This document shows positions 27,701 to 63,295 of a DNA stretch of 64,000 nt, in pieces (within the stretch, counting starts at the first letter, position 1; each line of letters begins with the position of its first letter). Made by a program: the position numbers and the translations under genes. The stretch spans positions 17,499 to 81,498 of the forward strand of contig PS015289.1 of the NCBI GenBank assembly GCA_048213135.1. The letters are read 5' to 3'. This DNA comes from Reclinomonas americana ATCC 50394 (lineage: Eukaryota). A model generated the notes under the pieces. That model saw nothing but the letters and a program-made list of their open reading frames with translations. It did not search any database and was not told the DNA's origin.

Positions 27701-28909
27701 CTCGACCCAACCACTCCTTCTCTCCCGCTCTCTTGCCATTTGCTGTTTCGCTGAACCCTGTCTATCCTTCACTTCTCACACAATTCGATTCGTTGCCCTC
27801 ACTGATTTGCTGTCTTTCCAAGCAGCCCTTGACTCAATCCCTCCTTCTCTTCTCTCTCTCTCTCTCTCTCGTCGACATGGACAGTTCGTTTCTCTCCTTT
27901 GTTCTCTCTCGCTCTCTCCTCCCCCTCCCCCCCCCCCCCCCTCCTTTCATTCCCTCCTCACCCGTCCCTCACCCCCTTCTTCTCCTCTCTTCCTGCAGCT
28001 TCCTGGCCTACTCCATCGTCACGCGCAGCGACGTCCGCCTGTACGTTGACGACAGCAGATTCGCCGCCAATGTGCGCGATCACCTCACCGACGCCGTCGC
28101 TGTGCGCCCCTACGCCTCCTTCTGGGACGATTTGAACACGCTGGCGGCCGACTCGAGCAACGTTGCGTTCCCCCGAATATTCTGCATTTTTGTTTCCACC
28201 ACTCATCCGTCTCGCCACAGCTCATTCTCCTGGCCTCTGCGTCGTGCAACGGTGCCATTTCGCTGGCCGTAGAGAATGCACGCGTCATTCAGCGACTCAG
28301 TCCCGTCAATTATATCAAGGCCATCAAGAACCCCGTTGAATTGGAGGGCATTCGACAGGCGCACATTCGCGATGCGGCGGCATTGGTAAGAACCCTTTCT
28401 CCGAAGCGAGGTTGAAGTTTCTTGCTCTCATCCGTCCCGCAGGTTCGCTTCTTGTGCTGGTTGGAGGAGCAAATCCACAACGGCGTGGAGCTGACAGAAA
28501 AGGATGCGGCGGATATGTGCGATGCCTTGCGATCGTTGAGTTGTGCGAGACACAAACCCCTTGTCTCTCTCTCTTCTCTCTGACTCTTTCCCTCGCAGTG
28601 AGCAACCGCTGTACGTGTCGCCAAGTTTCGCCACCATTCTCGGCAGCGGACCAAATGGCGCAGTGATCCACTACAAGCCGAACGCGGAGACTGCACGCAA
28701 GCTTACACCAACTGAAATGGTGTTGTGCGACTCGGGTGTGCAGTATCGGTGAGTGTGGTAACCCACAAGAACGATTCATTCACTATCAAACAAGTAACAG
28801 CTGTTTCACTCTCCTCGCACATTACTCCCCTCACCTCTTTCTCTCTCTCTCTCTTCTCTCTCTGTTGCTTCTCACCTTGTCGCCACAGACGCGCTTTCTA
28901 CTCCTCCTC

Positions 28910-28954
<45 letters not shown>

Positions 28955-30244
28955 GTTGCTTCTCACCTTGTGGCCACAGCGACGGCACCACGGACGTCAC
29001 TCGCACCATTCACCCCTCGGAACCCACCGCCTGGCAACGCGAGTGCTTCACGCGCGTTCTCAAGTCATTCCTCGCCCTCGGACGCGCCGTGTTCCCCGAC
29101 GGCACCACTGGCGTGCAGCTCGACACGCTGGCCCGCATGCACATGTGGTCTGGCGGCCTCGACTACAAGCACGGCACGGGTCATGGAGTGGGTGCGTTCC
29201 TGTGCGTGCACGAGGGACCGCACCTCATTGGCAAGCGGCGTTATCCGATTGAGATTGGCTTGTATCGTGGCATGACGGTTACCGATGGTAAGGAGGGGAA
29301 AGGGGAGAGGGGAGAGATGTGAGGAAAGTGGTAACGAAGAGATTAAGAAGGGAGAAAAGGAGATGTCGGCGAGTGGGGTCCCATGATGCCATCGTTTGCA
29401 TTCCAAGCCGAATCTTTCGGCTCTCCTTGATCTCACTCACTTGTTGTCTTCTATCGCTCTCTATCTCTGTCTGTGCCTTCAGATGCAGTCGTCTTGTCCT
29501 CGTTTGCTCGTTGCTCGTCGTGGCGGCGTTCTCCTTCAGTCTTCTTCTTCATTTTCTTCCTCGACTTCTTCTTCCTTTCTAGGCAACTTTGTGAGAATGA
29601 GAGGGCGAGGGACGGAAGAAGGAGCGGAGAGATAGATGAGAGAAAGAAGTTAGTCAAGGACATGTGTGAGTCTGAAGAGCAGCGAAGAGAGAGAGAGTCA
29701 AAGACTGTGCAGGGGTAAGACAGTGTGCAGGGAAGGGCGGGAGTGGATAGTGTCGGCAAGAGAGTGAGTCAGCATGTTGCTCTCACTCTTCTGTTACTCT
29801 CATGAACGAGTGAGGATTAGTTGAGTTAGGAGTGGAAGAGAAGTATCAAGGATAGTGCGGGCACAAACCGCATCTCCTCCCTTCTCTAATCTTCTCCCTT
29901 CCCGTACTTTGTCTATTCCCCTCGCAGAACCCGGCTACTACCACGACGGACACTTTGGCATCCGCATCGAAAACACGTGCCTGGTGGTGCCAGCCACGCA
30001 CCCCGGTCCCTCGGTCACTGGCGACTTTGAGGGCAATCACAATCGCTTCGACGGCATGTGCACGCTGGAGCACGCCACAGTGGTGCCGATTCAGCGCAAG
30101 CTGATGAACATGGAGATGCTGACGGGCGACGAGATCGCCTGGCTCAACGCCTATCACCGTCGCTGCTGGGAGTGTGTGTCGCCATTGTTGCAGGAGCATC
30201 CGCAGGCGTTGGAGTATCTGCGACGGGAGTGTGAGCCGCTGTGA
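24647..30244 (+). CDS. XPNPEP1: Xaa-Pro aminopeptidase (aminopeptidase P, cytosolic M24B type), 13 exons
   Basis: The spliced product contains [112 protein letters not shown] and TDEPGYYHDGHFGIRIEN. Confidence 0.95.
25170..25960. repeat. Intronic minisatellite in aminopeptidase P intron 2
   Basis: At least four copies of TTTGTC(AC)AGGCGTCACTCGTTCCCT...GCACTCTTTCGTTCT...CCTAAGTCGTTGC...CCTCACTGAA. Confidence 0.75.
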
Positions 30245-32135: not shown

Positions 32136-35100
32136 CGTTCCACTCCTGCTCTTTTGCGCATTCTGTCGCTCTCCTGAAACTCTGTACGTATCGTTCTCTC
32201 AAATTTTCTCCTCTCCATTCTCCTCACCCTCTTCCTTCTCCTCCCTCTCACCCTTCTCCCCCCTCCCCCCTTTCTCCCCCGCAGCCCAAGTTCGGCGTCG
32301 TCCACTCCGTCGGCCTGCTCAACGGCGTGCAGAGCCTCGCTCCCAACACCAACAGCAACCACCTGCGCAGTGCCGTGTGGCAGCGCCTCCTGCGCAACTG
32401 CGGCACCGAGTTCATGCGCTACCTGCTGTGCGAGCATCGCGTGTTTGTGCCAACCTCGGCGGCCACGCACGTGCAGGTCGCCGGTCCGGCTATTATCAAT
32501 CACCGATTCCGCGCCACCGCGACTGCTTCTGCTGCCGCCCCACCGCCACCACCACCCGCCGCCGCAGGCCCATCACAACTGCCAGTCCGAGCACCGAAAC
32601 GACAGGCCGCCGAACCCTTGCCCAGGCAACCGACGCCCGCCAAGCGGCGCCGTGTTGCAGAGCCGCTGGCCACCCTGAAGATCCCGCGGCATGTGTATCT
32701 GTACCGGAGAACATCACAGAAGCGGCCAGGACTGCCCACCGACCGTTGCGAAGAAGGTGGCTCTCTTTGCGCGCCACTCGCTGTTGCTCATTGATTCTTC
32801 CCGTCTGCAGACGTCTTGTACAAACTCGGCAAGTCGGGTAACGCCGGTCGCGATCTGGCGCTGCACATCATGCAAAACGGCAGCGACACCCCACTACCAC
32901 CGTCGGCAGAACCCAACCGCAACGCGCATTACGTGCCGAAGCGGCTGGTGGCCTTTGCGGAACTCTGTCACACCTTTCTCGCCCGTCATCACCGCTTCAA
33001 CCACTCGGCGATGTTGAATCTGCACGCGCCGTGCCACGGATCGCCGCGCGAATGGGACGAGGCGGCCACGGCGTCCAAGTCGGCCGGCTCAATCTTCGAC
33101 GCCGACATCAACACGCAGGAGAGTGCGGTGTCGCAGATCGCCGGTGACGGTGCTGAAGGTCGGTGCGGACATGCACATGTCGGTGATGCCGTGATTCACT
33201 TTTTCATGCATGTGCACAGCAAGTGACGACGTGCCCATGCCGCCGACTCCGCAAGTGGGCGGATCGTCCAGCGTGCTGTCGTTCGCCTCTCCGCCCTCGC
33301 ACGTGTTTCTCTACATTCGGTCCATGATCCGTAAGTGCGTACCACTGGAGGCGTGGGGAACCGAGGCCAATCAGCGCAAGTTCCTTTCAGATATCCTTTT
33401 TTGTGATACCTTCGCATCCCACCGTGTTTGTGCGTGCTGCGACCGATTCCTTGACCATGCGTGCCACCCGTCGACGACTTTATCAGGGGCAAGCGCTACG
33501 AGAACGTGTGTCTCGGCCATTTTCGCGACGGTATCAGCTGGAAGGCGATTCCGTGGATCAACGAATGCGGCGCCGACCATCTCACCAAGGAGACCATGCT
33601 GCTTCGCTTTCTCAAGTGGCTCGTGTTCGATGTGGTGCTGCAGCTCATGGCTGTCAATTTCTACTGCACGGAGACGGCGCCGCATGGTAGGCGTTCACCC
33701 CAGCAAATGTGCCACTGTTCTCTCTCGTGTTGCTCACCCTTCGTGCTCTACCCACAGGTCAGCGATTGATGTACTTTCGACAACCGATCTGGGATCGCCT
33801 GTCACGGCGTGCATTCCAAAAGCTGCACGATTCCGGCATGTTGCGCCAGATCAACACTGCAGAACGTACCGCTCTCACCGCGCGACGCAAGCTGGGCGAA
33901 GCCTCCTCCAAACTGCGCTTCGTCCCGAAAGAGGTCAGTCTTGAGTCGGTTGTGTCATTCATTCGCTTTCCCTCCCGCTCACGCGCGGCGCAGTCGGGTT
34001 TCCGTCCAATCTTCAACCTGTCGCGCAAGGTGGCTGTCGCCGGTCGCTTCCCCACTTCGGCGAATGCGCTGCTCCGAGACGCTCTGGCGGTGATCAGTCT
34101 GCACATGGAGAGCAATCCGCGCCTGATGGGTGCCGCCGTGTTCGACCGCAACGATTTTTTTCGGCTGTTTGCGCCGTTTGCCGTGCACCACCAGGAGCGC
34201 AGCGCACGCACGCAGACGCCGATGCCAGAGTTCTACGCCGTGTCCGTGGACGTGCGAGGCGCATTCGACTCGCTGCCGCACCCCTCACTCGCCACCGCCG
34301 TGCGAGCCACGTTTACCGAGTCGCTGTATCTGCTCGTCAAGTGTGCGGTGCTGTCGGGATCGACATCCAATTTGCGCACGCGCTTTCCGCTCATCGCCCG
34401 AAACATTCTGGCCGACGGCTACCCCGAGTTTCTCGAGCTGGCGCGTGATTGGCTCACCAAGAGGTTCTCGCCGGCGGTGTTTGTCGATAAGGTGGGGGTA
34501 GGGAAAGGTAGAAGGGGAAGGCAGAAAGGGAAGGTAAAAGGAAAGGGGGAAAAGAGTGAGAGGGAGTAGAAGGGGAAGGGTGCTGGGGAGCAAGCGAGAA
34601 TCATGTTGACTCGCTTGATCCCGCAATACTTCTCTCGGCATCCGCACTTCACATCAGTCATTTACCTCAGTCCCTCTTGTCTCAGTTTTGACTGTATCTC
34701 CTCTCTCTCTCTCTCGCTCTGTGTGTGTGTGTGTGTCTGCGTCGTGTAAATCCGGTATTCTTATCTTTCGGCCCTCTCGGTTCTTTCTGTTCCCGTCCCC
34801 TTGCTTTATGTGTTTGTTATCGATCTCTCACACAAGCCTCGTTTTCCGTAACCCTGGTCCTTCTCTCCATCTGTCTACTTGCAATGTCATTCTCCTTCAA
34901 TGCCATGATGGTCTTGACCTTCTCTCTCGCGTCAGTGCTCGTTTGATGTTACTCTGTCCAGTTTCTCCCGTTCTCTGCTTGCGATATTCTGTGTTTCTCT
35001 GAACAAGTGGGTTTGTTAAGCGCCCTCGTCCAGACTCTGCTCTCTCACATATCAGTGCCCCATTTCCTCAACCTGCCCCCTCTTTGCATTACTCGACTTG

Positions 35101-37151
35101 CATTCTGTGTTTCTTTTTGATAACGTCCTTGTCACTGTCGTCAGTGCCTCGTCTTTTGTGATTGTGTCTCTTCTCTCTCTTTCTGCACTTGCGATACCGG
35201 TGTCTTCTTTTCTTCTCTGGAAAGTGGCGTATGTTCAGTTTTGTTCTTGCCCAGACTCTTCTCTCTTTCTCTCTCTCACACACGCGCTCTCATTCTCTCC
35301 CTCTCCCTCTTCTGCCCGAACTTTATTCAGTCCACATTGTGTCCTCTTCTGCTCTCTTCTTTCGTGCACGTATATCACTCACTCGCACCCAGCACTTGCT
35401 CTCTCATCGCATCGCCGCACTCACCTATTCCCTTCCCCTTTTCTTCCCTTCCCCCTACGCCAGGTGCTCTACCACCTCTCCCCCCGCGAAGACATCCTCT
35501 CCCTCCTCGACGACCTCGTCCTCTCCAACCTCGTCAACTACGACGGCAGCGTGTCGCTGCAAGAGATCGGCATTCCGCAAGGCTCGGTGGTCTCGACGCA
35601 CCTGTGCAATTTGCTGTATGCGCAGCTGGAGCGCAAGTTTCTCGATTTTCTCTCGCTGCCCGACGACGGCGAGGATCCCGGTGCGAAGCCTCCTTCTCTC
35701 TGTCTCTCTCACACACATTCCCCGTGCAAGCTCACTCTCCTGCTTGCAGCATTCGTGGCTAGCAGTCACTGGCTGGCGGGCTCGACGCTGCTGGTACGCA
35801 TGACCGACGATTTCCTCCTCATTACATCGTCGCGCATCAAGGCCGAGCGATTCCTGCGAGTGATGGCGGGTGGCGTGCCCGAGTTCGGCGTGTCGGTGAA
35901 TCTCGACAAGACGCAGAGCAACTTTGAGTCGCCAACCGGTGGCACACGCACCAGTGGCAGTCGCTTCATTCGGTGGTGCGGCCTGTTGCTCGACACGGTG
36001 CAGCTGGAGCTTCTGTACGATTACTCGCGGTTGTACAGGAAACGTGAGTGTGTTGCTTGATGCAAAAGCGTTGCAATGGTGGCGTACTCATTTCTTTTCT
36101 GCGCGAAGATATGGGCAATACGATTTCCGTGGACGTGGCGCGCAACGCTGGTCGACAGCTGCAGGAGCGAGTGATATCGTTGCGCGCGGGGAGGGGGAAG
36201 GAGGGGGGGAGGGGGGAGAGGGGAGGGAGGGGGGAGAGGGGAGAGGGAGAGGGAAGAGGGAGAGGGAGAGGAAGAGGAAGAGGAAGAGGGAGAGAGGGGG
36301 AGGGAGAGGATGAGGGAAGAGTGAAGAGGCGAGGGAAAGGAGAAGGGGAGAATGATGAGAATAGGAGGAGGAGGGATGGCTGAGGAATAAGAGGGATATA
36401 GGCAGAGGGAGAGGGATGCACACGAAGTGGAGAAAGCATGAGAAGAGAACCAAAAAGGAGTGATTTCCTTTCGCTCATCTATTCTCGCAGTGTCATGGAG
36501 CAGCGCCTGCAGCCAGTGGTCCTCGATCCGGCGGTGCTCAGCGAGCGCACCATTGCCCGCAACATCTACTGCGTGATGAGCTGGACGGCCATGCGACTGC
36601 ACTTGGCGGTGCGCGACATGAGTGCACGCGCCGGCATTCGGCAGGAGTTTGTCATTCGTTGCGTTCCCGACGCTCGCTGATTCACTTGCAAGCATTGCAC
36701 TCACTCCAATGAACAGGAACGGCATTTGCACTGCTCAACGCCGCGCAACACCGCTGCTATCGCATCGGGCGTCGCGATGGCGATGGTGACGGTGGATTGC
36801 TGCGCTGCAAGGCGGCAGTGCAATGGTGCGCACAATTATGCAGCACACGTATTCTCCTTCGACTTGTCTCATTCCTATTGGTGTAGGATCGGCCTCACGG
36901 CATTCCTGCACGCTCTTCAGCGCAAGCAGTCGCGCTACCGCGACCTGCTGCCACGGCTTGCCAGCCTGCAGCACTTTATGTTCGCCAACATCCCCTCGCG
37001 CATGACCGCATGCTTGCTCCACGACGAGTGCCTCGGTTCGCTGCTGTGTCCACCCATTGCAGATCCTGCCGCGACTGGCGCGCGCCGCATCGCCATGCTG
37101 CAAGATGTGCCACAGCATCGGCAGGCGCCCCACTTGCTGGTCAAGTACTGA
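30803..37151 (+). CDS. TERT: Telomerase reverse transcriptase
   Basis: Probable start MGRRRKRPR at 30803 (intron 30870-30930). TEN domain: DNVLADGY, PNTNSNHLRSAVWQRLL...HVQVAGP. QFP: VPLEAWGTEANQRKFL. Motif T: NFYCTETAPHGQRLMYFRQPIW. Motifs 1/2: KLRFVPKE|SGFRPIFNL. Motif A: VSVDVRGAFDSL. Motif B': GIPQGSVVSTHLCNL. Motif C: LVRMTDDFLLI. Motif E: WCGLLLD. C-terminal extension: VQWIGLTAFLHALQRKQSRY. Confidence 0.95.
33391..33467 (+). other. U12-type (minor spliceosome) AT-AC intron in TERT, 77 nt
   Basis: 5' ATATCCTTT, branch site TTCCTTGAC at 33447-33455 and 3' CCAC. Its removal restores NQRKFLSAVDDFIRGKRYE. Confidence 0.9.
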
Positions 37152-40011: not shown

Positions 40012-43439
<3,428 letters not shown>

Positions 43440-47189: not shown

Positions 47190-50100
47190 TTAGAATTCGG
47201 CCAGCGATGCGTAGCCACCAACCGGCGGCACAAACGGTTCCATGCCCTCCAGGGCGCTCATGACTTCGCCCATGCTGTGTATGTAGACAAGCAGGTGAAA
47301 CGCGGGACACACATGCTCTTTATCCTTTTCTCCCTCCCACTGTCTTTCACACCCACTCTCTCCCTCACTGTCCCTCGCCCTCTCCATCTGCTGTCTTTTT
47401 TCCCCCCTCACTCATGGTTCTTCTCACCCCCTGCATCACTCACGTTGGTCTCAACTCGGCGTCGTACTGCAAGCAGCGCGTCATGAGCTTTGCGTATTCC
47501 TCCGGGAGCACGCTACCGTCGCGCTCGTCCGCCAGTTCACCGAGGCGCTCATGCGAGACAGAGAGCGAGAGACGGCCTGTGTCACAAGAGGCAGGAAGTG
47601 AGACAACGAGGCACAAGGGCAATTCCACAAACAATTGCTGCGTGCACGAACCCACGGCCAACTGGTGCAGCACCGACATGGCGTTGAGGTCCTCGAAGGG
47701 TCGCCGCTGATGCGCCAGCTCCCACATCACAACGCCAAAGCTCCACACGTCCACCTTGACCGAGTACCGATCGCCGCGAGCCAACTCGGGCGACATGTAC
47801 GAGATGGTGCCGACGCGTGTCATGGTCGTGTTGTTCTCCGCCAGTCGCGCCAGTCCGTAGTCGCCGACTTTTGGCAGCCACGATGCCGTGATGAAAATGT
47901 TGTCGCTCTTCACATCGCGATGGACACTGCATGGGGATGATCATCAGCAAGGACAAGAGGGCAAAGCAAGAGCGAGAGAGGGCGACGCGCAACATGGCAG
48001 GCTGCAGCGAGTGCAAGAAGTGCAGTCCACGAGCCACACCGAGTGCAATCGACAAGATGAGTCGCGGTGGGACGGGATCCGTGCGCAAGCGCTGCGGCTG
48101 CAAGCAGTCGGCCAGACTGCCACGCTCAGCGTACTCGGTAATCAGTGCGTTCTGCGCGGTGCATGTGTGAGAGAGGTGAGGAAAAGAAAATCCTGCGCCC
48201 TCCCTGTGTCTTTCCCTCCACTTCCTGCGTCCTTTTTCTTCTTGCTTCTCCTATTACTGCATCGCCTTCCCCTCCCTTCCTTCTTGTTCTTCTTCTTCTT
48301 CTTCTTGTTCTTGTTCTTCTTCTTCTTCTTGTTCTTTCTTCTCCTCTTGTTCTTGTTCTTGATCTTCTTCTCCTTGCTCTTCTTCTTTTTTCTTCTCACT
48401 CTTCTTCTTCTTCTTCGTCTTCTTCTCACTCTTCTTCTTCTTCTTCNNNNNNNNNNNNNNNNNNNNNNNNNNNNNNNNNNNNNNNNNNNNNNNNNNNNNN
48501 NNNNNNNNNNNNNNNNNNNNNNNNNNNNNNNNNNNNNNNNNNNNNNNNNNNNNNNNNNNNNNNNNNNNNNNNNNNNNNNNNNNNNNNNNNNNNNNNNNNN
48601 NNNNNNNNNNNNNNACTCTTCTTCTTCTTCTTCTTCTTCTTCTTCTTCTTCTTCTTCTTCTTCTTCTTCTTCTTCTTCCCCCACCTCATCCTCATCTCGA
48701 TCGCTTCTCCTCACTCTCCTTCTTCGCCGTGGGGGATAATGACACACAGACCTGTCTCTCGCCGGCAATAACACCCCAGCACATGAGCAGATTCGGGTGG
48801 CGCAGCGAGGCCATGAGGCGCACTTCGCCGGCAAAGGAGCGAATGGCACCGTCGTCCTCATGAGAGTCGGCGAGAGTGTCGAAAGACCTGTCAACGATGA
48901 CACACTAGGAATGGGCACTCTGATGCTTGGAAAGCATACTTCGCGCAAACACGCACCACGGCGCGCGGAAACTCTTGATGGCCACCTGCATGCCGCGCCA
49001 CGTCCCCAGGTACACCTCACCGAACGAGCCAGCACCCACACGGCGCGTGAAAGAGATTTCGTCGGGGCGCACAATCTGGATGCGCGCGTCACCGGGTCCG
49101 AAGCGCGCGTCCAAGTCAGGATCAGGCGCGGTAATGTACTGCGGCAGAGGGGGCCCGTGAGACGTGCGCGCAAAGAGAGAATGCACACACCACACTCACC
49201 CGCACAAACAGCGACGGCCCCTCGAGCGGAATCGAGTCGGAGTTGGTGCTGCCAAAGAGGCGACGCGGAGAGGTCAGCAGCGGCGTGTTCTCGTTGGAGC
49301 TGGTGGGCGAACCGGAGCCGGAACTGAGGAGCAGGAGGCGATCCTGGCTCTCCTCCACCATGAACATGAATGTGATGAAGAAACTGGGCGGCGCGGTCAG
49401 TGGCGAGAAGAGGGCGCGAAACGAGAGCGAGCCACGCACAATACGGAGACCATGTCGGCGGCCTGTGACAACAGGATACAGAAAAGCGTGAGTGCACCAC
49501 CAATGTGAGCGACAAGGCACGTAGCCCGACCGCTCACCATGTACACACAGTCGAGAGAGCCTTTCGACGAATCCTGTTAACAAAAGTTGCAATGTCAGAG
49601 AAAGAGCGTCGCCTCCGCACACAGGGTGCACAAGCTTACCGTGTTGCCAATGCCGAAATCGCTCGAGAAAAACAGGGAGAATTTGACGAGCACCATCAGC
49701 GTGCATAGTTTCTCCCAGAAACCCGCGCGTGCCACAAACGAGTTGAGCATGGCGAGCAGGCTCAACACCACACCGGCGCCGTCGATGACCAGGAAAATGC
49801 GACGCATGTTTGTAAAATCGTCGTCACTCACCACCGTCTGCCGGCGAGCGGTGAGAAGCAGACGAAAAGTAAAAAAAACGCGTGTCTCCTCTTCTGCATG
49901 CATACCAGCGCGAGTGTGCCAATGAGCAGCAAGACGCCGCCGACGGTGGCGCTGAGGGCCCACGGATAACGCAAGTTGGTGAGGCGGCGGGGCACGATTT
50001 GGTAGCGCGCTGGTGGGTGGCGGATGCGCACAATCAGCGCGGTTACCACGAAGCCGTAGGTGAAGTACTGCGAGAGGAGGGAGGAGGAGGAGGTGAGGAG

Positions 50101-51570
50101 GTGAGGAGAAGGGGGAAGGGGGGATAGGGGGAAACGGATGGAGAAGGGGAAGGGAAGGGGAGGGAGAAGGAAGAAGGGGAAGGGGAAGGGGAAGGGGAAG
50201 GGGAAGGGGAAGGGGAAGGGGAAGGGGAAGGCGGAGGGGAAGGGGATCCGGAGAAGTGTGAAGGAGAAAAAGAAGGAGAAAAAGAAGGAGAAGGAGAAGG
50301 GGAGAAGAGAGGAGAGGAGAGAAGAGAGAACAAGCGAAGTGAGAGAGACATCAGAGTGCGGGATACGAACGTCGGCGGCGTCAAGCGGGGTAAATGAGGG
50401 GTAGCTGTGGTCGCTGACGATTCTGTGGGTGGGGCGAGGGGGAGGGGTATTGTGAGATGAGGAGCAGGGAGAGGGGGGGAAGGGGAGAAGGGGGAAAGGG
50501 GAAGGGGGTGAGAAGGAGAAGCGGGAGGGGAAGGGGAGAGGNNNNNNNNNNNNNNNNNNNNNNNNNNNNNNNNNNNNNNNNNNNNNNNNNNNNNNNNNNN
50601 NNNNNNNNNNNNNNNNNNNNNNNNNNNNNNNNNNNNNNNNNNNNNNNNNNNNNNNNNNNNNNNNNNNNNNNNNNNNNNNNNNNNNNNNNNNNNNNNNNNN
50701 NNNNNNNNNNNNNNNNNNNNNNNNNNNNNNNNNNNNNNNNNNNNNNNNNNNNNNNNNNNNNNNNNNNNNNNNNNNNNNNNNNNNNNNNNNNNNNNNNNNN
50801 NNNNNNNNNNNNNNNNNNNNNNNNNNNNNNNNNNNNNNNNNNNNNNNNNNNNNNNNNNNNNNNNNNNNNNNNNNNNNNNNNNNNNNNNNNNNNNNNNNNN
50901 NNNNNNNNNNNNNNNNNNNNNNNNNNNNNNNNNNNNNNNNNNNNNNNNNNNNNNNNNNNNNNNNNNNNNNNNNNNNNNNNNNNNNNNNNNNNNNNNNNNN
51001 NNNNNNNNNNNNNNNNNNNNNNNNNNNNNNNNNNNNNNNNNNNNNNNNNNNNNNNNNNNNNNNNNCACTCTCTCTCTCTCTCTCCCTTCTCTCTCCCTCT
51101 CTCCCATCTCTCTCTCTCCCTCCATCTCTCCCTCCCTCCCTTCCCTCCTTCTCGCACTCTTAGACAACACGTGCAGCGGAACAACAACACAAACAATCAC
51201 TCACTGCGCACAAGCAGAGAACCCCCTCTCCCCCCGAGCAACACCAACTCACCGACTCAACGCCAACAACACCATAACCACCGAGGAAAGCGCGAGAAAC
51301 GTCACATGCTCTGCAATGCACCGAGTCACAAATCCGAACACGCCACGAAAAGCACTCACACTCACACACACAAACACAGCAACACCTGTCTTGAGTGGTT
51401 TAACAAGACCACGGAGCACGCGTCTCCGATGCACAAGCACCTGTGGAAAGCAGCAGCTCTTGATGAGGAGTTTTTCACGCTGAGCGGACACGTTCTCGCG
51501 CTCTCTCTCACACACTCACCAGTGCGCCTGTGACCACCACTTGCCCCAGTAGGCAGGAGCCAGACATGAC
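47190..51570 (-). CDS. Multi-pass membrane protein with C-terminal tyrosine-kinase-like (TKL) kinase domain; 5' exons approximate
   Basis: Kinase motifs across exons: VGAGSFGEVYLGTWRGMQVAIK, EVRLMASLRHPNLL, GLHFLHSLQPAI|VHRDVKSDN, KVGDYGLAR, VGTISYMSPE, DVWSFGVVMWE and RCLQYDAELRPT. Several hydrophobic segments lie upstream (49370-50070, ~51260-51320). Confidence 0.85.
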
Positions 51571-52088: not shown

Positions 52089-53182
52089 TCACAGTCGGAG
52101 ACTCTCATCGGCGCAACAACGATGGAGAATCACCTCGGCCTCCTCCACAATGAAGCACCGCAACACAATCTCGGCCAAACATCGCCTGTCTGACTCCTCA
52201 TCCTCTCCGCTCCTTCGCCGCATCTCCAGCGCGGCGCACATGGCTTGTCGAGCGCAGTCCAGCTCCTGCCGAGCGAGGCCACATGGCGTCGACCACACCC
52301 TCACCGTTCTGTCTTCACCCCCGCTTACAATGTGCAGGCCATCTCGAGCAATGGCAACAGACAGCACGCCTCTCGTATGCCCTTCCAACTGTCGCACCTG
52401 CTCGCCAGTCGCCAGCGACCACACTCGCAACTTCCCATCTTCGCCTCCACTCACAACTTTTTGACTGTCAAGAGTGACGGCGACACACGAGACCCATCCA
52501 CTGTGACCCTCGAATCGTCGCACCTCCTCTCCGCTCTCCAGCGACCACACGCGCACTGTGCTGTCGTCACTTCCGCTGACGATATGCAGGCCATCGAGAG
52601 TAACGGTGATAGATGGCACCCACTCCGCATGCCCCAGCAATCGTCGCACCTCCTCCCCAGTTGCCAGTGACCACACTCGCACTGTCCGGTCGGCACTCCC
52701 ACTCACAACATGCAGGCCGTCGGGAGTGACGGCAACAGACAATACCCAGTTCGTGTGCCCCTCCAACCGTCGCACTTCCTCGCCACTCTCGAGTGACCAC
52801 ACGCGCACTGTCTTATCACAACTCCCACTCACTACATGCAGGCTGTCGGGAGTGACAGCGACCGAACGCACCATGTTCGAGTGCCCTTCAAGCCGTCGCA
52901 CTTGTTCTCCACTTGCCAGCGACCATACGCGAATTGTGCTGTCGTTGCTCCCGCTGACTACGTGTTGACCATCGGGAGAGACGGCGACCTCCATCACCCA
53001 CTCAGTGTGTCCCTCGAACCGCGCCACCTCTTCTCCAGTCACGAGAGACCACACTCGCACGGTCTTGTCACCGCTCCCACTCACGATGAACTGACCATGG
53101 GAAAGATGGCGACAGAGGTCACCGCGGAGGTGTGTCCACGCAAGCACTTGCAGGGGAGAGAGGGAGGAGGAGCGGAGGACAT
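52089..53182 (-). pseudogene. WD40 array copy A: 7 repeats plus conserved C-terminal module; 1-nt deletion in repeat 1
   Basis: ATG at 53182 (MSSAPPPSLPCKCLRGHTSAV). CCC ATG GTC replaces consensus CCC GAT GGT at ~53098 and shifts the frame; the remainder is open to 52089. This could be a sequencing error. Confidence 0.7.
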
Positions 53183-53399
53183 GGTGCGGGCGTGGGGAGA
53201 GAAGTGCGAGTTTGAGTTGTCCTTTGTTGAAGGGACATGCCGGTGACTTCGGAACTCTTACGGCAGTGGCACACTGGTCTATCGAAACAAGGGTGCTTCA
53301 CTTGGGAGGTACACTCTCAGAGACAGAATATTAAAGCAACTCATGGGCTGCTGTCTGTTGCGTAAAAACACGCAGTAAATGGCAAGGAAGAGCACAGAG

Positions 53400-53434
<35 letters not shown>

Positions 53435-53857
53435 GAGAGAGAGAGAGAGAGGAGGAGAGAGAGAGAGAGGAGGAGAGAGGAGAGAGAGAGAGAGAGAGAC
53501 AACAACGACGACGTCTCCTTCCCGTTCCCGTCCCGTCCCGTACCACCTACGACGGACGGTACGTACGTACGACGGTACGGTACGGACTCTCGTCGTACGT
53601 TAACCGTANNNNNNNNNNNNNNNNNNNNNNNNNNNNNNNNNNNNNNNNNNNNNNNNNNNNNNNNNNNNNNNNNNNNNNNNNNNNNNNNNNNNNNNNNNNN
53701 NNNNNNNNNNNNNNNNNNNNNNNNNNNNNNNNNNNNNNNNNNNNNNNNNNNNNNNNNNNNNNNNNNNNNNNNNNNNNNNNNNNNNNNNNNNNNNNNNGGA
53801 GAGAGAGAGAGAGAGATCACAAGACAGCTCTCCTTCCGCCCTTCGCCACTCAGCGAG

Positions 53858-54961
53858 TCACAGTCGGAGACTCTCATCGGCGAAACAACGATGGAGGATG
53901 ACCTCGGCTTCCTCCACAATGAAGCACCGCAGCACGATCTCCACCAAGCAGCGTGAATCATCTCCTTCCTCCTCTCCACCCTCTTGCATCTCCTGCACGA
54001 CCCGCATGCATTGTCGAGCGCAGTCCAGCTCCTGCCGAGCGAGGCCACATGGCGTCGACCACACTCTCACTGTTCCATCATCACTCCCACTGACGACATG
54101 CTGACCATTTGGAGAAACGGCGACATTCTGCACCGCCGACGTGTGGCCCATCAGCCGTCGCACCTCTTTGCCACTCTGGAGTGACCACACTCGTATCGAC
54201 TCGTCTCCGCTGCCACTCACCACGTGCTGACCATCGGGAGTGACGGCGATACACCTGACCCACGCACTGTGACCCTTCAATCGTTGCACCTCCTCGCCAC
54301 TCGCCAGCGACCACACACGCACTGCTTTGTCCCAGCTTCCACTCACAACGTGGCATCCGTCGGGAGTGACGGCCACAGCCATCACCCACTGAATGTGTCC
54401 CAGCAGCCGTTGCACCTCATCCCCAGTCGCCAGTGACCACACTCGTACTGTCTTATCACAACTCCCACTCACTACATGTTGACCGTCGGGAGTGACTGCG
54501 ACAGACATTACCCATTTCGTGTGCCCCTCCAACCGTTGCAGCTCCTCGCCACTCTCGAGTGACCACACTCGCACTGTGCTGTCGGAACTTCCACTAACGA
54601 TGTGCTGACTATCAGGAGTGACAGCGACAGAGCGCACCAGGTTAGAGTGACCCTCAAGCCGTCGCACCAACACCGCAGATCCACTCGAGCACACAAGCGA
54701 CCACACACGCACGCTCGTGTCATCACCCCCGCTGACAATGTACTGGCCATCGGGAGTGACGGCAACGGACTTTACCCACTCCGAGTGTCCCTCGAACTGC
54801 GTCACCTCCTCGCCAGTTGCCAGAGACCACACTCGCACAGTGTTATCATCACTTCCGCTCACCACGTGCTGGCCGTCGGGAGTGATGGAGACAGAGGTCA
54901 CCGAGTTGGTGTGTCCGCACAAGCACTTGCAGGGGAGGGAGGGAGGAGGAGCGGAGGACAT
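53858..54961 (-). CDS. WD40 array copy B, intact, 367 aa, intronless, 7 repeats plus C-terminal module
   Basis: Seven GH...VAVTPDG...SGSxDxTVRVWS repeats, then TPCGLARQELDCARQ...RCLVEIVLRCFIVEEAEVILHRCFADESLRL*. Confidence 0.95.
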   Translation of the reverse strand: MSSAPPPSLPCKCLCGHTNSVTSVSITPDGQHVVSGSDDNTVRVWSLATGEEVTQFEGHSEWVKSVAVTPDGQYIVSGGDDTSVRVWSLVCSSGSAVLVRRLEGHSNLVRSVAVTPDSQHIVSGSSDSTVRVWSLESGEELQRLEGHTKWVMSVAVTPDGQHVVSGSCDKTVRVWSLATGDEVQRLLGHIQWVMAVAVTPDGCHVVSGSWDKAVRVWSLASGEEVQRLKGHSAWVRCIAVTPDGQHVVSGSGDESIRVWSLQSGKEVRRLMGHTSAVQNVAVSPNGQHVVSGSDDGTVRVWSTPCGLARQELDCARQCMRVVQEMQEGGEEEGDDSRCLVEIVLRCFIVEEAEVILHRCFADESLRL

Positions 54962-55223
54962 GGTACGGGCGTGGGGGGAGGAGCGTGAGTGACGGAGTTT
55001 ATGTTGTCCTTTGTTGAGGGGACATGCCAGTGACTTCAGCACAGTGCTTTATCGAAACAAGGGTGCTGCATGAGGAAGGTATATTCTCAGAGACAGAAAA
55101 TAAGAAACTCACAGGCTGCTGTCTGCTGCGACAAAACACGCAGTAAATGACAAGGTAAGAGCACAGAGCACAAGAGAGAGACAACACAAGGCAGACCTCC
55201 TCCGCCCTTTGCCCATCAGCGAA

Positions 55224-55720
55224 TCACAGTCGGAGACTCTCATCGGTGACACAACGATAGACGATGACCTCGGCCTCCTCCACAATGAAGCACCGCAACA
55301 CGATCTCCACCAAGCAGCGCGGATCATCTCCTTCCTTCTCCATGCCAACTTGCATATCCTGCACTTCACGCATGGCTTTTCGAGCGCAGTCCAGCTCCTG
55401 TCGAGCGAGACCACAGGGAGTGGACCACACTCTCACCGTCCGATCGTCACCCCCGCTGACAACGTGCTGACCATCCGGAGAAACGGCGACGCACTGCACC
55501 GCTGATGCGTGCCCCTCCAGCTGACGCACTTCTGCGCCACTCGCCAGTGACCATACACGCACGGTTGTGTCCAAGCTGCCACTCACTACGTGCTGACCAT
55601 CGGGAGTGACGGCGACAGAGTACACAACGCTTGTGTGTCCCTCCAGTCGCCGCACTTCTTCTCCACTCGCCAGAGACCACACGCGCACAGTCTCGTCCCA
55701 GCTGCCGCTCACCACATGCT
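55224..55720 (-). CDS. WD40 array copy C, 3' part only (5' end in gap)
   Basis: About 2.5 WD repeats plus the same C-terminal module, truncated by Ns at 55721. Confidence 0.85.
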
Positions 55721-56117
55721 NNNNNNNNNNNNNNNNNNNNNNNNNNNNNNNNNNNNNNNNNNNNNNNNNNNNNNNNNNNNNNNNNNNNNNNNNNNNNNNN
55801 NNNNNNNNNNNNNNNNNNNNNNNNNNNNNNNNNNNNNNNNNNNNNNNNNNNNNNNNNNNNNNNNNNNNNNNNNNNNNNNNNNNNNNNNNNNNNNNNNNNN
55901 NNNNNNNNNNNNNNNNNNNNNNNNNNNNNNNNNNNNNNNNNNNNNNNNNNNNNNNNNNNNNNNNNNNNNNNNNNNNNNNNNNNNNNNNNNNNNNNNNNNN
56001 NNNNNNNNNNNNNNNNNNNNNNNNNNNNNNNNNNNNNNNNNNNNNNNNNNNNNNNNNNNNNNNNNNNNNGAGAGAGAGAGAGAGCAATGCAGTTTCCTTC
56101 GTTCTTCATCCGCGACC

Positions 56118-57210
56118 TCAAAAACAGTCCTCCGTCGAGAGCCGATGGAGAACGACTTCGGCTTCCTCCACAATGAAACAACGCAGCACGATCTCTGGCA
56201 AACAACGCGGTTCCTCTTCTTCCTCCTCTGCGCCCTCTTGCATCTCCTGCACGACGCGCATGGCTTGTCGAGCGCAGTCCAGCTCCTGCCGAGCGAGGCC
56301 ACATGGCGTCGACCACACCCTCACCGTTCTGTCTTCACCCCCGCTTACAATGTGCTGGCCATCTTGAGCAATGGCAACAGACAGCACACCTCCAGTATGC
56401 CCTTCCAACTGTCGCACCTGCTCCCCAGTCGCCAGCGACCACACTCGCAACTTCCCATCTTCGCCTCCACTCACAACTTTCTGACTGTCAAGAGTGACGG
56501 CGACACACGAGACCCATCCACTGTGACCCTCGAATCGTTGCACCTCGTCTCCACTCTCCAGCGACCACACTCGCACAGTCGTGTCCCAGCTGCCGCTCAC
56601 AACGTGGCGACCGTCTGGAGTGACGGCGACAGACGTCACCGTATTGGCGTGTCCCTCCAACCGTCGCACTTCCTCCCCAGTCGTCAGTCTCGTCAGTGAC
56701 CACACGCGCACTGTCCGGTCGGCACTCCCAATCACTACATGCTGGCCGTCGGGAGTGACGGCAACAGACAACACCCGATTCGTGCGCCCTTCGAATCGAC
56801 GCACTTCCTCGCCACTTTCGAGTGACCGCACGCACGTTTTTATCCACACTTCCACTAATGACGTGCTGACCATCAGGAGTGACGGCGACCGAGCGCACCA
56901 TGCGAGAGTGCTGTTCAAATTGTTGCACTTGTTCTCCACTCACCAACGACCACACGCGAATCGTGCTGTCGTTGCTCCCGCTGACCACGTGTTGACCATC
57001 GGGAGTGACAGCAACTGACTTGACCCAATGAGTGTGTCCCTCGAATCGCGCCACCTCTTCTCCAGACACGAGTGACCACACTCGCACGGTGTTGTCCTCA
57101 CTCGCACTCACGGCGAGCTGACCGTCGGGAGAGACAGCGACAGACCAGATCATGCCAGTGTGACCACGCAAGCACTTGCTTGGGAGGGAAGGAGGAGGAG
57201 CGGAGGACAT
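56118..57210 (-). pseudogene. WD40 array copy D, frameshifted
   Basis: ATG at 57210. Lesions: a frameshift at ~56830 in repeat 3 (VRVWSL broken), GH changed to GR and QH, a 9-nt insertion (WSLTRLTTG) and an altered C-terminus HRLSTEDCF*. Confidence 0.75.
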
Positions 57211-57478
57211 GGTGTGCGTTCGTGGAGAGAGAGAAACGGAGTGTGTGAGTGTCCTTTGATGTGGGGACATGCCGGTGACTTCGAAACTCTGAGGCCAGTG
57301 ACGACACGCCTGAAGGTACATTCTCAGAGACAGAATATTAGAGAAACTCATGGACTGCTGTCTGCTGCGACAAAACGCGCAGAAAATGACAAGGGAAGAG
57401 CCAGGAAACACGAGTGAGTGAGAGAGAGAGATTGAGAGCACAAGGCAGATCTCTTTGCGTCCTTCGCCACTCAGCGAG

Positions 57479-58567
57479 TCACAGTTGGAGACTCTTATCG
57501 GCGAAACAACGATGGAGAACGACCTCGGCCTCCTCCACCAGGAAGCAACGCAGCACGATCTCCACCAAGCAGCGCGGATCATCTTCCTCCTCTTCCGTGC
57601 CCTCTTGCATCTCCTGCACGGCACGCATGACTTGTCGAGCACAGTCGAGCTCCTGCCGAGCGAGACCACACGGAGTGGACCACACTCGCACCGTCTTATC
57701 ACCGCTCCCACTCAAAACGTGCAGACCATCCGGAGTAACGGTGACGGACGTCACGCCTGCAGTGTGCCCCACCAACCGGCGCACCTCGTCGCCACTCGCC
57801 AGCGACCACACTCGAATCATCCCATTCTCGCCCCCACTCACCACACGCTGACCATCGGGAGTGACGGCAACATACCAGACCCATCCCGTGTGACCCTCGA
57901 ACTGTCGCACCTCTGCACCAGTCGCCAGTGACCACACCCGCACTACCTTGTCGTCGCTTCCGCTCACAACGTGCCGCCCGTCGGAAGTGACGGCGACACA
58001 CCACACGATGTTGGTGTGTCCCTCCAGTCGTCGCACTTCTGCGCCACTCTGGAGGCACCACACGCGCACTGTTTTATCCCAACTGCCACTCACGACATGT
58101 TTACCATCGGGGGTGTCAGCAACAGATCGCACCATATTCGCATGCCCCTCACATCGGCGCACCTCCTCGCCAGTGGCCAGCGACCACACGCGCACAGTCA
58201 TGTCCACACTCCCACTCACAACGTGCAGACCATCGGGGGTGATGGCAACTGATGTCACATCTGCTGAGTGTCCCTCCATTCGTCGCACCTCCTCGCCACT
58301 CGCCAGCGACCAAACGCGCATTGCGTTGTCTGCACCCCCACTGATAATGTACTGACCATCGGGAGTGACGACAAGCGAGCGCACCCGCTCAGTGTGGCCC
58401 TCCAACCGTCGCACCTCTTTCCCACTCGCCAGTGACCAAACGCGTATGGTCTTGTCATCACTTCCGCTGACCGCGTGCTGGCCGTCGGGAGTGACAGTGA
58501 CAGAGAAGACCATGTGAGTGTGGCCACGCAAGCACTTGCAAAGGAGAGAAGGAGGAGCGGAGGACAT
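57479..58567 (-). CDS. WD40 array copy E, intact, 362 aa, intronless, 7 repeats plus C-terminal module
   Basis: Full ORF from MSSAPPSLLCKCLRGH to HRCFADKSLQL*. Confidence 0.95.
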   Translation of the reverse strand: MSSAPPSLLCKCLRGHTHMVFSVTVTPDGQHAVSGSDDKTIRVWSLASGKEVRRLEGHTERVRSLVVTPDGQYIISGGADNAMRVWSLASGEEVRRMEGHSADVTSVAITPDGLHVVSGSVDMTVRVWSLATGEEVRRCEGHANMVRSVADTPDGKHVVSGSWDKTVRVWCLQSGAEVRRLEGHTNIVWCVAVTSDGRHVVSGSDDKVVRVWSLATGAEVRQFEGHTGWVWYVAVTPDGQRVVSGGENGMIRVWSLASGDEVRRLVGHTAGVTSVTVTPDGLHVLSGSGDKTVRVWSTPCGLARQELDCARQVMRAVQEMQEGTEEEEDDPRCLVEIVLRCFLVEEAEVVLHRCFADKSLQL

Positions 58568-58890
58568 GGTGCGCGCGTGGAGAGAGAGAAGGAGATAGTG
58601 AGTCTGTTCTTTGTCGGGACAACATCATGACTTCGGCACTGACGGACGAAGATCAAAGGCGACGCATTGCTTGTCAACATGGGGCGCTGCAACTGGGTGG
58701 TACATTCGCAGAGAGAAAGGAAATATCTTGAGTTACCGGCTTAGAAATCAAACCGCGAGGAGAAGAAGCAGGAAACACAATTGCAAGAAAGCAGAGAGGG
58801 TGAATAGGGAGAGAGAGAGAGAGAGAGAACACGAGGGAGAGAGAGAGAGAGAGAACACGAGGAGAGAGAGNNNNNNNNNNNNNNNNNNNN

Positions 58891-59313
58891 CACCTCCTCG
58901 CCAGTCGCCAGTGACCACACTCGCAAGGCCTTGTCACTGCTTCCGCTCACGATGTACTGTCCATCGGGGGTGACGGCGACAGACTGTACGATCGACTGCA
59001 CGTTGGCAATGTGCTCCAACTGGCGCACATTCTTTCCGCTCTCCAGCAAGCGCACGTAGATGGTGCTGTTTGCACACCCACTCACGATATGCTGTCCGTC
59101 GGGAGTGATGGCAACAGACAACACATAGAAGAGGTGGTGTGCCAGTTGATTCACTTGCTCCCCACTCGCCAGTGACCACAGGCGCAAGGTCTGATCGTGA
59201 CTGCTGCTCACAATGTGCTGTCCGTTCGGAGAAATGGCAACAGATGTCACACCATCCGTGTGTCCAAGCAAGCATTTGCAGGGGAGAGAGGGAGGAGGAG
59301 GGGCGGAGGTCAT
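58891..59313 (-). CDS. WD40 array copy F, 5' part only (3' end in gap)
   Basis: MTSAPPPPSLPCKCLLGH plus three more divergent WD repeats, interrupted by the 20-N gap at 58871-58890. Confidence 0.8.

Positions 59314-59545: not shown

Positions 59546-63295
<3,750 letters not shown>

Follow-up and report, generated by a model that had tools for sequence, protein, structure and literature searches.

A tandem array of stand-alone seven-blade WD40 genes with a shared C-terminal tail in Reclinomonas americana

Results

We analysed a 64,000-nucleotide stretch of Reclinomonas americana ATCC 50394 (GenBank assembly GCA_048213135.1, contig PS015289.1, positions 17,499 to 81,498; hereafter the window), in which an initial annotation, made from the sequence alone, had pointed to a tandem array of WD40 genes. 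Six intronless genes, each for a stand-alone seven-blade WD40 propeller, lie head to tail on the minus strand between position 52089, the stop of the last gene (g1), and position 59313, the ATG of the first (g6) (Table 1). Each unit is laid out as an ATG and 14-residue N-terminus (MSSAPPPSLPCKCLRGH), seven repeats of 42 amino acids (aa), a 65-aa tail and a conserved spacer. In g5 the ATG stands 14 residues ahead of blade 1, and an in-frame stop lies 19 codons upstream of it. The annotation had counted at least six head-to-tail copies, which tblastn, Pfam and Tandem Repeats Finder all bore out: every relative of g5 in the window fell inside 52092-59313, and 126-bp repeat arrays of 6.3, 6.0, 2.1 and 6.5 copies were detected. 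The wording "at least six" is correct because N gaps may hide further copies.

Two of the genes are intact (g5 and g2), two are frameshifted (g1 and g4), and two are cut by N gaps (g3 and g6). The most divergent copy, g6, is 56% identical to g5 over residues 1-136 and carries a 3-aa insertion in blade 3; its remainder is lost in a 20-N gap at 58871-58890. Besides its shifted frame, g4 has a 3-aa insertion in blade 4 and a divergent final eight residues, and it is an apparent pseudogene or assembly error. The blade number is seven in all four full-length copies (g1, g2, g4 and g5), and what is left of g3 and g6 agrees with this layout. Altogether, 32 complete and two partial 42-aa units were recovered. 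The repeats had been described as highly similar; the shared 42-aa repeat is real, but protein identities of 56-70% between g5 and the five other copies and mean identities of 0.60-0.68 among the blades inside one protein make "moderately" the better word. All the motifs listed for the variable face (EWVME, NMVRS, KWVMS, SAVQN, HMVFS, ADVTS, NIVWC and GWVWY) were present, and the short N-terminus, as read off the sequence, has no hydrophobic signal-like stretch, as had been stated.

Table 1. Features of the array and of its surroundings in the window.
Feature	Coordinates	Strand	Description
g6	58891-59313	-	First gene; velcro strand, blades 1-3
g5	57479-58567	-	Intact, 362 aa; velcro strand, seven blades, 65-aa tail
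g5 tail	57479-57676	-	Helix A (TPCGLARQELDCARQ...), acidic loop, helix B (RCLVEIVLRCFIVEEAEV...)
Spacer g5-g4	57211-57478	-	Gap-free
g4	56118-57210	-	Seven blades and tail; 2-bp deletion relative to paralogues near 56840 (blade 3), frame shifted
g4 tail	56118-56309	-	
g3	55224-55720	-	End of blade 5, blades 6-7, tail; 5' part in N gap 55721-56069
g3 tail	55224-55421	-	
Spacer g3-g2	54962-55223	-	Gap-free
g2	53858-54961	-	Intact, 367 aa from ATG 54961; seven blades (4-aa insertion in blade 2) and tail
g2 tail	53858-54055	-	
Spacer g2-g1	53183-53857	-	675 bp including 189-N gap 53609-53797
g1	52089-53182	-	ATG 53182; 1-bp deletion in blade 1 (about 53095-53110) shifts frame; blades 2-7 and tail in one frame
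g1 tail	52089-52289	-	
Xaa-Pro aminopeptidase P	25020-30241	+	Multi-exon; Pfam pieces in order on separate open reading frames (ORFs)
Reverse-transcriptase fragment	35020-36057	+	RVT_1 23.5 bits, below the 29.6 cut-off
Galactosyl_T (GT31) ORFs	41847-43436, 62126-63292	+	Two, intronless; weak matches (E 2.8e-9, 4.5e-10); flank the region
Protein kinase exons	47443-48250, 48908-49195	-	Pkinase E 7.5e-27; about 3 kb downstream of the array, same strand

The Pfam WD40 family (PF00400) matched seven stretches per protein, with E-values of 5e-79 for g5, 4e-83 for g2 and 3e-73 for a third protein and scores of 257.8, 270.8 and 239.5 bits against a gathering cut-off of 27. An AlphaFold2 model of g5 contained 28 strands in seven blades plus two helices, at a predicted local distance difference test (pLDDT) value of 89 overall and 94-98 over the blades. 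Residues 10-14 formed a strand ahead of blade 1 in this model, which we read as a velcro strand, with the N-terminal CKCLR predicted to give the last strand of blade 7. The best solved neighbour was the WD40 domain of Thermomonospora curvata PkwA (5yzv; 41% identity, root-mean-square deviation 0.9); target-normalised template modelling scores were 0.97-0.98 to 5yzv and to the WRAP-T designs, and Lis1 was among the nearest solved propellers. Across 185,579 prokaryote genomes, the best relative was 50% identical over g5 residues 10-324; among metagenome proteins, the top two (P0023 and P0021), both with long N-terminal regions, reached 57-62%. No copy of the window's own WD40 proteins was present in the protein collection searched.

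The lowest identity among the best six repeats was 0.52 in g5, g4 and g1 and 0.61 in g2. With these values (0.52-0.61), computed on a 31-aa core and not by the exact alignment method of Hu et al. 2017 (PMC5587647), the array proteins fall within the cut-offs of the "moderately repetitive" WD40 class, given in the sections of that paper on which we draw as at least six repeats with pairwise identities of 0.4-0.7. The same sections of Hu et al. 2017 (PMC5587647) put about 2% of fungal and protist WD40 proteins above an internal identity of 0.4 and describe repetitive WD40 proteins as keeping their diversity at hot-spot sites.

We quantified variation along the repeat as Shannon entropy over the 32 complete units, numbering each unit from its GH. 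Entropy exceeded 2.8 bits at positions 4, 5, 7, 23 and 25 only; position 3 came next at 1.83 bits, and most scaffold positions lay at or below 1 bit. Positions 5 and 7 flank the invariant V6, as 23 and 25 flank the invariant D24. In the AlphaFold2 model, the d-a loop holds positions 4 and 5, strand a has position 7 as its second residue, and positions 23 and 25 sit beside the invariant Asp of the b-c turn. The d-a loops and b-c turns of WD40 proteins form the top face of the propeller, and the equivalent positions of WDR5 presumably line its arginine-binding site. Residues of the hot-spot type (W, M, R, Y and F) are common at the variable positions. In the portion of Paoletti et al. 2007 (PMC1805685) used here, NWD/HET-E repeats have four selected codons, 7/9 and 25/27, around the purified codons 8 and 26; the array has this same layout, offset by two. 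Entropy, model and published codons therefore upheld the view that variation is focused on top-face positions matching the HET-E/HET-D sites.

As a control, we examined 113 units from the 21 of the 120 best g5 relatives that had at least five regular units. These relatives are mostly bacterial, and the search pattern fixed several scaffold positions but none of the five variable ones. The five most variable positions were again 7, 23, 5, 4 and 25, and the profile correlated with that of the window (Spearman 0.75). The pattern of hypervariable positions is a property of this WD40 repeat subtype. Since the same five positions vary in ordinary relatives, variability alone does not show that the copies bind different ligands.

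Selection was measured with a site test of the fixed effects likelihood type, using a GY94-type codon model with F3x4 frequencies on an IQ-TREE tree of 32 units by 42 codons. The non-synonymous rate (beta) exceeded the synonymous rate (alpha) at p < 0.1 in 0 of 42 codons, and beta was below alpha in 28. Four variable sites and position 39 had the five highest non-synonymous rates (1.25-1.63), with position 5 (0.63) near the top. Pooled, the five variable positions had a beta of 1.08, an alpha of 3.01 and a beta/alpha ratio (omega) of 0.36 (confidence interval 0.19-0.61), and equality of the two rates was rejected (p 0.003) in the direction of beta < alpha. The remaining positions pooled to a beta of 0.21 and an omega of 0.23. 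Nei-Gojobori counts on orthologous blades gave proportions of non-synonymous (pN) and synonymous (pS) differences of 0.53 and 0.67 at the five positions, with per-site pN/pS of 0.60-1.04, as against a pN of 0.15 and an omega of 0.22 away from them. Overall omega was 0.23-0.30. In the youngest pair, g1 and g4, the 20 variable codons of blades 2, 4, 6 and 7 held four non-synonymous and two synonymous changes.

These tests are limited by near-saturated synonymous sites, short 126-nt units and a tree weakly resolved at depth, and exchange between copies breaks their assumption of a single tree. Given these limits, old or episodic positive selection may be hidden. As they stand, the data at the five positions fit relaxed constraint, with no demonstrable positive selection. 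The initial annotation had proposed diversifying selection at these sites and had named the lack of a non-synonymous excess there as one of the observations that would speak against its proposal. No such excess was found, with synonymous divergence (dS) near saturation, and the proposal of diversifying selection was not sustained.

Comparison of the blades revealed how the array evolved. Nucleotide identity averaged 0.718 between blades of the same index in different genes (58 pairs), 0.667 between blades within a gene (82 pairs) and 0.661 between blades of different index in different genes (356 pairs). The tree likewise grouped blades by index across genes, with bootstrap values of 91 for blade 6 and 95 for blade 4. 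The blades keep their order-specific orthology, and there is therefore no concerted evolution, the defining feature of the NWD repeats; the mode is birth-and-death from a seven-blade ancestor. The pair g1 and g4 showed an uneven pattern, with nucleotide identities over blades 2-7 of 0.86, 0.68, 0.91, 0.67, 0.99 and 0.95, and blade 3 of g1 resembles blade-4 types. Judged from the alignments, this mosaicism suggests patchy gene conversion or blade replacement.

The duplication unit includes the spacers along with the genes. Gap-free spacers measure 262-268 bp. Reading on from the stop, every spacer shows a short conserved stretch and a CT-rich tract, and further conserved blocks reach as far as the ATG. 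Identity among the three full spacers is 70-80%, compared with 57% at third codon positions of orthologous blades, and this conservation could reflect regulatory constraint or homogenisation. The CT-rich spacers had also raised the idea of a polycistronic array of the kinetoplastid style, which was ruled out by the ordinary GT-AG introns of neighbouring genes.

These results bear on the proposal of an innate-immune or allorecognition repertoire, in which the top face would be diversified by positive selection as in HET-E/HET-D/NWD and the tail would signal to an effector. Its appeal lies in variable positions structurally equivalent to the selected NWD codons, as far as the portion of Paoletti et al. 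2007 used here describes them, in the frequent hot-spot-type residues, and in the organisation of the genes as a tandem multigene family, some of whose members look like pseudogenes, with patchy exchange between g1 and g4; at a pS of 0.67 in the variable codons, old positive selection would also be harder to detect. Nonetheless, we regard this proposal as very unlikely. Neither the site test and pooled omega nor the few changes between g1 and g4 support it, the repeats are not homogenised by concerted evolution, the blade count is fixed at seven in the full-length copies, and ordinary WD40 relatives vary most at the same positions. No NACHT, NB-ARC or death-type domain occurs in the genes or the window: in Pfam searches the array ORFs had WD40-type families only, and neither NACHT nor NB-ARC appeared in the 102 other ORFs of the window, in agreement with the annotation's description of stand-alone proteins that lack them. 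The annotation's picture of a variable binder joined to a constant module was sound as anatomy, and its immune or allorecognition role was left unsupported, with neither positive selection nor concerted evolution detected.

We next turn to the constant module. The five tails in the window do not vary over their first 17 aligned residues or over most of RCLxEIVLRCFIVEEAEV. Omega was 0.04 over TPCGLARQELDCARQ, 0.45 over the acidic loop, 0.07 over RCLVEIVLRCFIVEEAEV and 0.94 over the last 12 residues. As the two conserved segments stand at a dS of 0.3-0.7, the constraint is real and not an effect of recent duplication. The constant C-terminal module that had been proposed is accordingly present in five copies under strong purifying selection. 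AlphaFold2 placed helices at residues 299-322 and 332-356 with moderate confidence, the pLDDT being 54-74 in context and 76.8 when the tail was folded alone. This helix-loop-helix is amphipathic, its second helix hydrophobic, and the tail fold matched only generic helical hairpins among solved chains (best Z 8.6, in the unspecific range), including designed helical oligomers.

The tail might instead be a helical bundle for self-association, making the array proteins dimeric or oligomeric housekeeping scaffolds of the Lis1 kind, with top faces that differ through subfunctionalisation or drift. The amphipathic character, the hydrophobic second helix and the place of Lis1 among the nearest solved propellers all agree with such a role, as do the matches to designed oligomers, every one at an unspecific Z. 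However, a simple bundle would rarely need 15 invariant residues abutting the last blade, and six tandem copies would be unusual for a housekeeping scaffold. We consider this alternative possible, if doubtful.

Searched with a profile of the tail, a set of 1.84 billion representative proteins yielded three matches at E ≤ 0.001, all of them propellers. The first (P0241, 116 aa, E 1e-24) comprises a last WD blade and the tail and derives from an expressed sequence tag (EST) of Reclinomonas americana itself (EukProt EP00694, EST EC795383.1); it is a fragment, 62% identical to g5 in the alignment, with its stop at the same place, and is identical to no copy in the window. The other two (P0242, 394 aa, and P0243, 381 aa) are similar in overall length to the array proteins and also end in the tail, but their sequences have diverged to 28% and 24% identity with g5. 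Their propellers are degenerate (WD40 E-values of 6e-13 and 4e-3) and without consensus-like repeats. Both come from Logan assembly pieces, of 2262 and 5765 bases. The tail is thus found on propellers that share little sequence, and transcripts of at least one relative exist in a jakobid.

Other searches for the tail returned nothing further. None of the eight tails had a Pfam match at E ≤ 10, and the only match among PDB sequences was a designed helical barrel at E 9.7. In the 185,579 prokaryote genomes no convincing match covered the tail: 77 of the 80 kept loci end by query residue 342, short of the second helix, and the other three (L007, L021 and L017) extend further at only 35-38% identity. 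Tail patterns matched 72 times in metagenome contigs and 44 times in viral contigs, in neither case in a relative, and a degenerate RCFIVEEAEV pattern had no match in the metagenome contigs. A word-index search with the tail among proteins of 199-634 aa produced two candidates, neither of which was scored; the ESM Atlas held no usable tail match, and there P0242 led to generic WD40 clusters only. A literature search on jakobids, WD40 proteins and tandem arrays listed nothing relevant, although no search was aimed at the tail motif itself. On the strength of these sequence comparisons, we consider the 65-aa tail a new element of these proteins.

The eight tails agree without exception in ten alignment columns, those of LRCF included. 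A zinc-binding or disulphide motif was considered and rejected: of the four cysteines common to the five window copies, only that of LRCF is kept in eight of eight tails, P0242 lacking the other three, and a fifth (HRCF) is already missing in g4. A single conserved cysteine argues against a metal site. The endings -LRL, -LQL, -MYL, -DLR and -LWW, set against the consensus of the type 1 peroxisomal targeting signal (PTS1), ruled out that signal as well.

The surroundings of the array contrast with it in gene structure. At least six GT-AG introns, each a few hundred bases long and with many CT repeats, interrupt the Xaa-Pro aminopeptidase P gene. The database proteins nearest to its last exon come from chytrids and kickxellomycetes at about 50% identity, and none exceeds about 53%, so that no closely related annotated species is represented there; nor, given also the absence of the array's own proteins, is the proteome of the organism. 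The reverse-transcriptase fragment is probably a retroelement remnant, and the kinase has a glycine loop (GSFGEVYLGTWRG) that looks TKL-like. We found no evidence linking the array to this kinase gene. No Rfam family or tRNA was detected within the window. The assembly is a draft, with 16 N gaps in the window; those at 48447-48614, 50542-51065, 53609-53797 and 59937-60138 adjoin long microsatellites of the CT/GA or trinucleotide kind, and the breaks in the assembly, including those inside the array, were probably caused by low-complexity DNA.

The WD40 genes have a lower G+C content at third codon positions (GC3; 0.62-0.65) than the aminopeptidase, kinase and GT31 genes (0.72-0.82). An origin by retroposition or transfer would fit intronless genes of lower GC3, as would low expression. 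These features also raise the alternative of a decaying, largely non-functional recent amplification of a bacterial-type WD40 gene, gained by transfer or retroposition, whose scaffold would be kept by fold stability and youth. Transfer or retroposition would explain why the array genes have no introns in an intron-rich genome, and the nearest propellers are bacterial in the genomes searched, with P0023 and P0021 closer still and 5yzv the best structure; two copies are, moreover, frameshifted. In contrast, the low overall omega and the 28 codons under significant purifying selection occur at high dS, the tail is strongly constrained and absent from bacterial matches, a tail-bearing relative is transcribed in Reclinomonas americana, and two copies are fully intact. 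Decay of this kind is, in our estimation, unlikely.

Discussion

We interpret the array as a tandem birth-and-death family of small cytosolic stand-alone WD40 propellers whose top faces diverge and whose common tail serves for docking or dimerisation, a reading to which we assign a probability of roughly one in two. Each gene would supply one closed seven-blade propeller followed by the conserved 65-aa helix-loop-helix, and the top face would be made of five positions per blade, 35 residues in total, differing between paralogues. Because the top faces differ, the protein or peptide ligand probably differs from copy to copy. Because the tail is constant under purifying selection and recurs on unlike propellers, it most likely docks to one shared partner or pairs the proteins. 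By analogy with the F-box/WD40 and SOCS-box/WD40 proteins, of neither of which it is detectably a member, the family would act as a set of substrate or cargo receptors that bind their adaptor through a common module. Its evolution would have combined whole-gene duplication and occasional patchy exchange, the scaffold being held by purifying selection while constraint on the top face relaxed, with no demonstrable positive selection.

Several observations weigh against this interpretation. The WD40 subtype as a whole is variable at the five positions. The modelled tail is a generic hairpin that could equally dimerise or pack back on the propeller, and the eight tails had no match at E ≤ 10 to the F-box (PF00646/PF12937), the SOCS-box (PF07525) or any other adaptor-binding Pfam family. 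Two of the six copies are frameshifted, and the frameshifts and lower GC3 would also fit weakly expressed or decaying genes. The tail's CLPE[IM][VI]LRCF can be likened by eye to the start of the F-box, LPxEILxxIF; this likeness was set aside as unsupported, and the proline occurs in only three of the eight tails.

A bolder version makes the tail a new adaptor-docking domain of an undescribed jakobid-like receptor family, in which the tail would connect all the diverged top faces, each recognising a different target, to one effector, such as a ubiquitin ligase or machinery for cell death or trafficking. Such a family would be a non-NLR counterpart of F-box/WD40 or HET-E-type sensors, and saturated divergence would mask episodic positive selection. 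We think this version quite unlikely. If the tail is a docking module, it would represent a new way to couple WD40 platforms to a common partner in a deep-branching, barely studied lineage, and the array would offer a compact setting in which to study the diversification of propeller specificity among duplicated genes. As matters stand, a hypervariable top face on a constant scaffold is widespread among consensus-like WD40 repeats, and being general it gives, alone, no grounds for an immune repertoire. The array is of modest interest, owing to the new tail module and to how rare such arrangements are in this little-studied lineage.

Comparison with known systems

The array proteins resemble the repetitive WD40 proteins of bacteria and lower eukaryotes, such as 5yzv and Nostoc 2ymu, in their consensus-like 42-aa repeats, conserved scaffold and diverse hot-spot sites. 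They differ from the bacterial ones in being eukaryotic, in standing as six genes in tandem and in carrying a C-terminal tail seen on no bacterial match. Whereas PkwA has a kinase attached and P0021 and P0023 have long N-terminal regions, the array proteins stand alone at 362-367 aa. Their high dS and omega near 0.2 recall the cases called "ancient" in the sections of Hu et al. 2017 (PMC5587647) used here. Jakobids and heteroloboseans also have Gcp1-3, which are Pex7-like WD40 proteins according to the part of Horvathova et al. 2021 (PMC8134430) on which we rely; by impression, the consensus-like repeats of the array look unlike propellers of the Pex7 type.

With HET-E/HET-D/NWD of Podospora anserina, as described in the portion of PMC1805685 cited above, the array shares the WD40 subtype, paired variable positions around two invariant residues, and a multigene family with pseudogenes. 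According to the same portion (PMC1805685), repeats in that family are up to 100% identical and NWD repeats group by species or gene, whereas repeat identity in the array is about 0.6 (protein) and its blades keep their orthology by index. Unlike HET-E/HET-D/NWD, the array genes have neither a NACHT nor a HET domain, show no detectable positive selection and, in the four full-length copies, are fixed at seven blades.

In function, the closest analogy may be with the F-box and SOCS-box WD40 receptors, which pair a WD40 binding face with a short constant helical module for a shared adaptor. FBXW7, beta-TrCP and WSB1 are receptors of this kind in cullin ligases, and such families often expand in tandem. 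Their binding face has seven or eight blades, and the module of the array differs from theirs in being C-terminal and in having two helices only.

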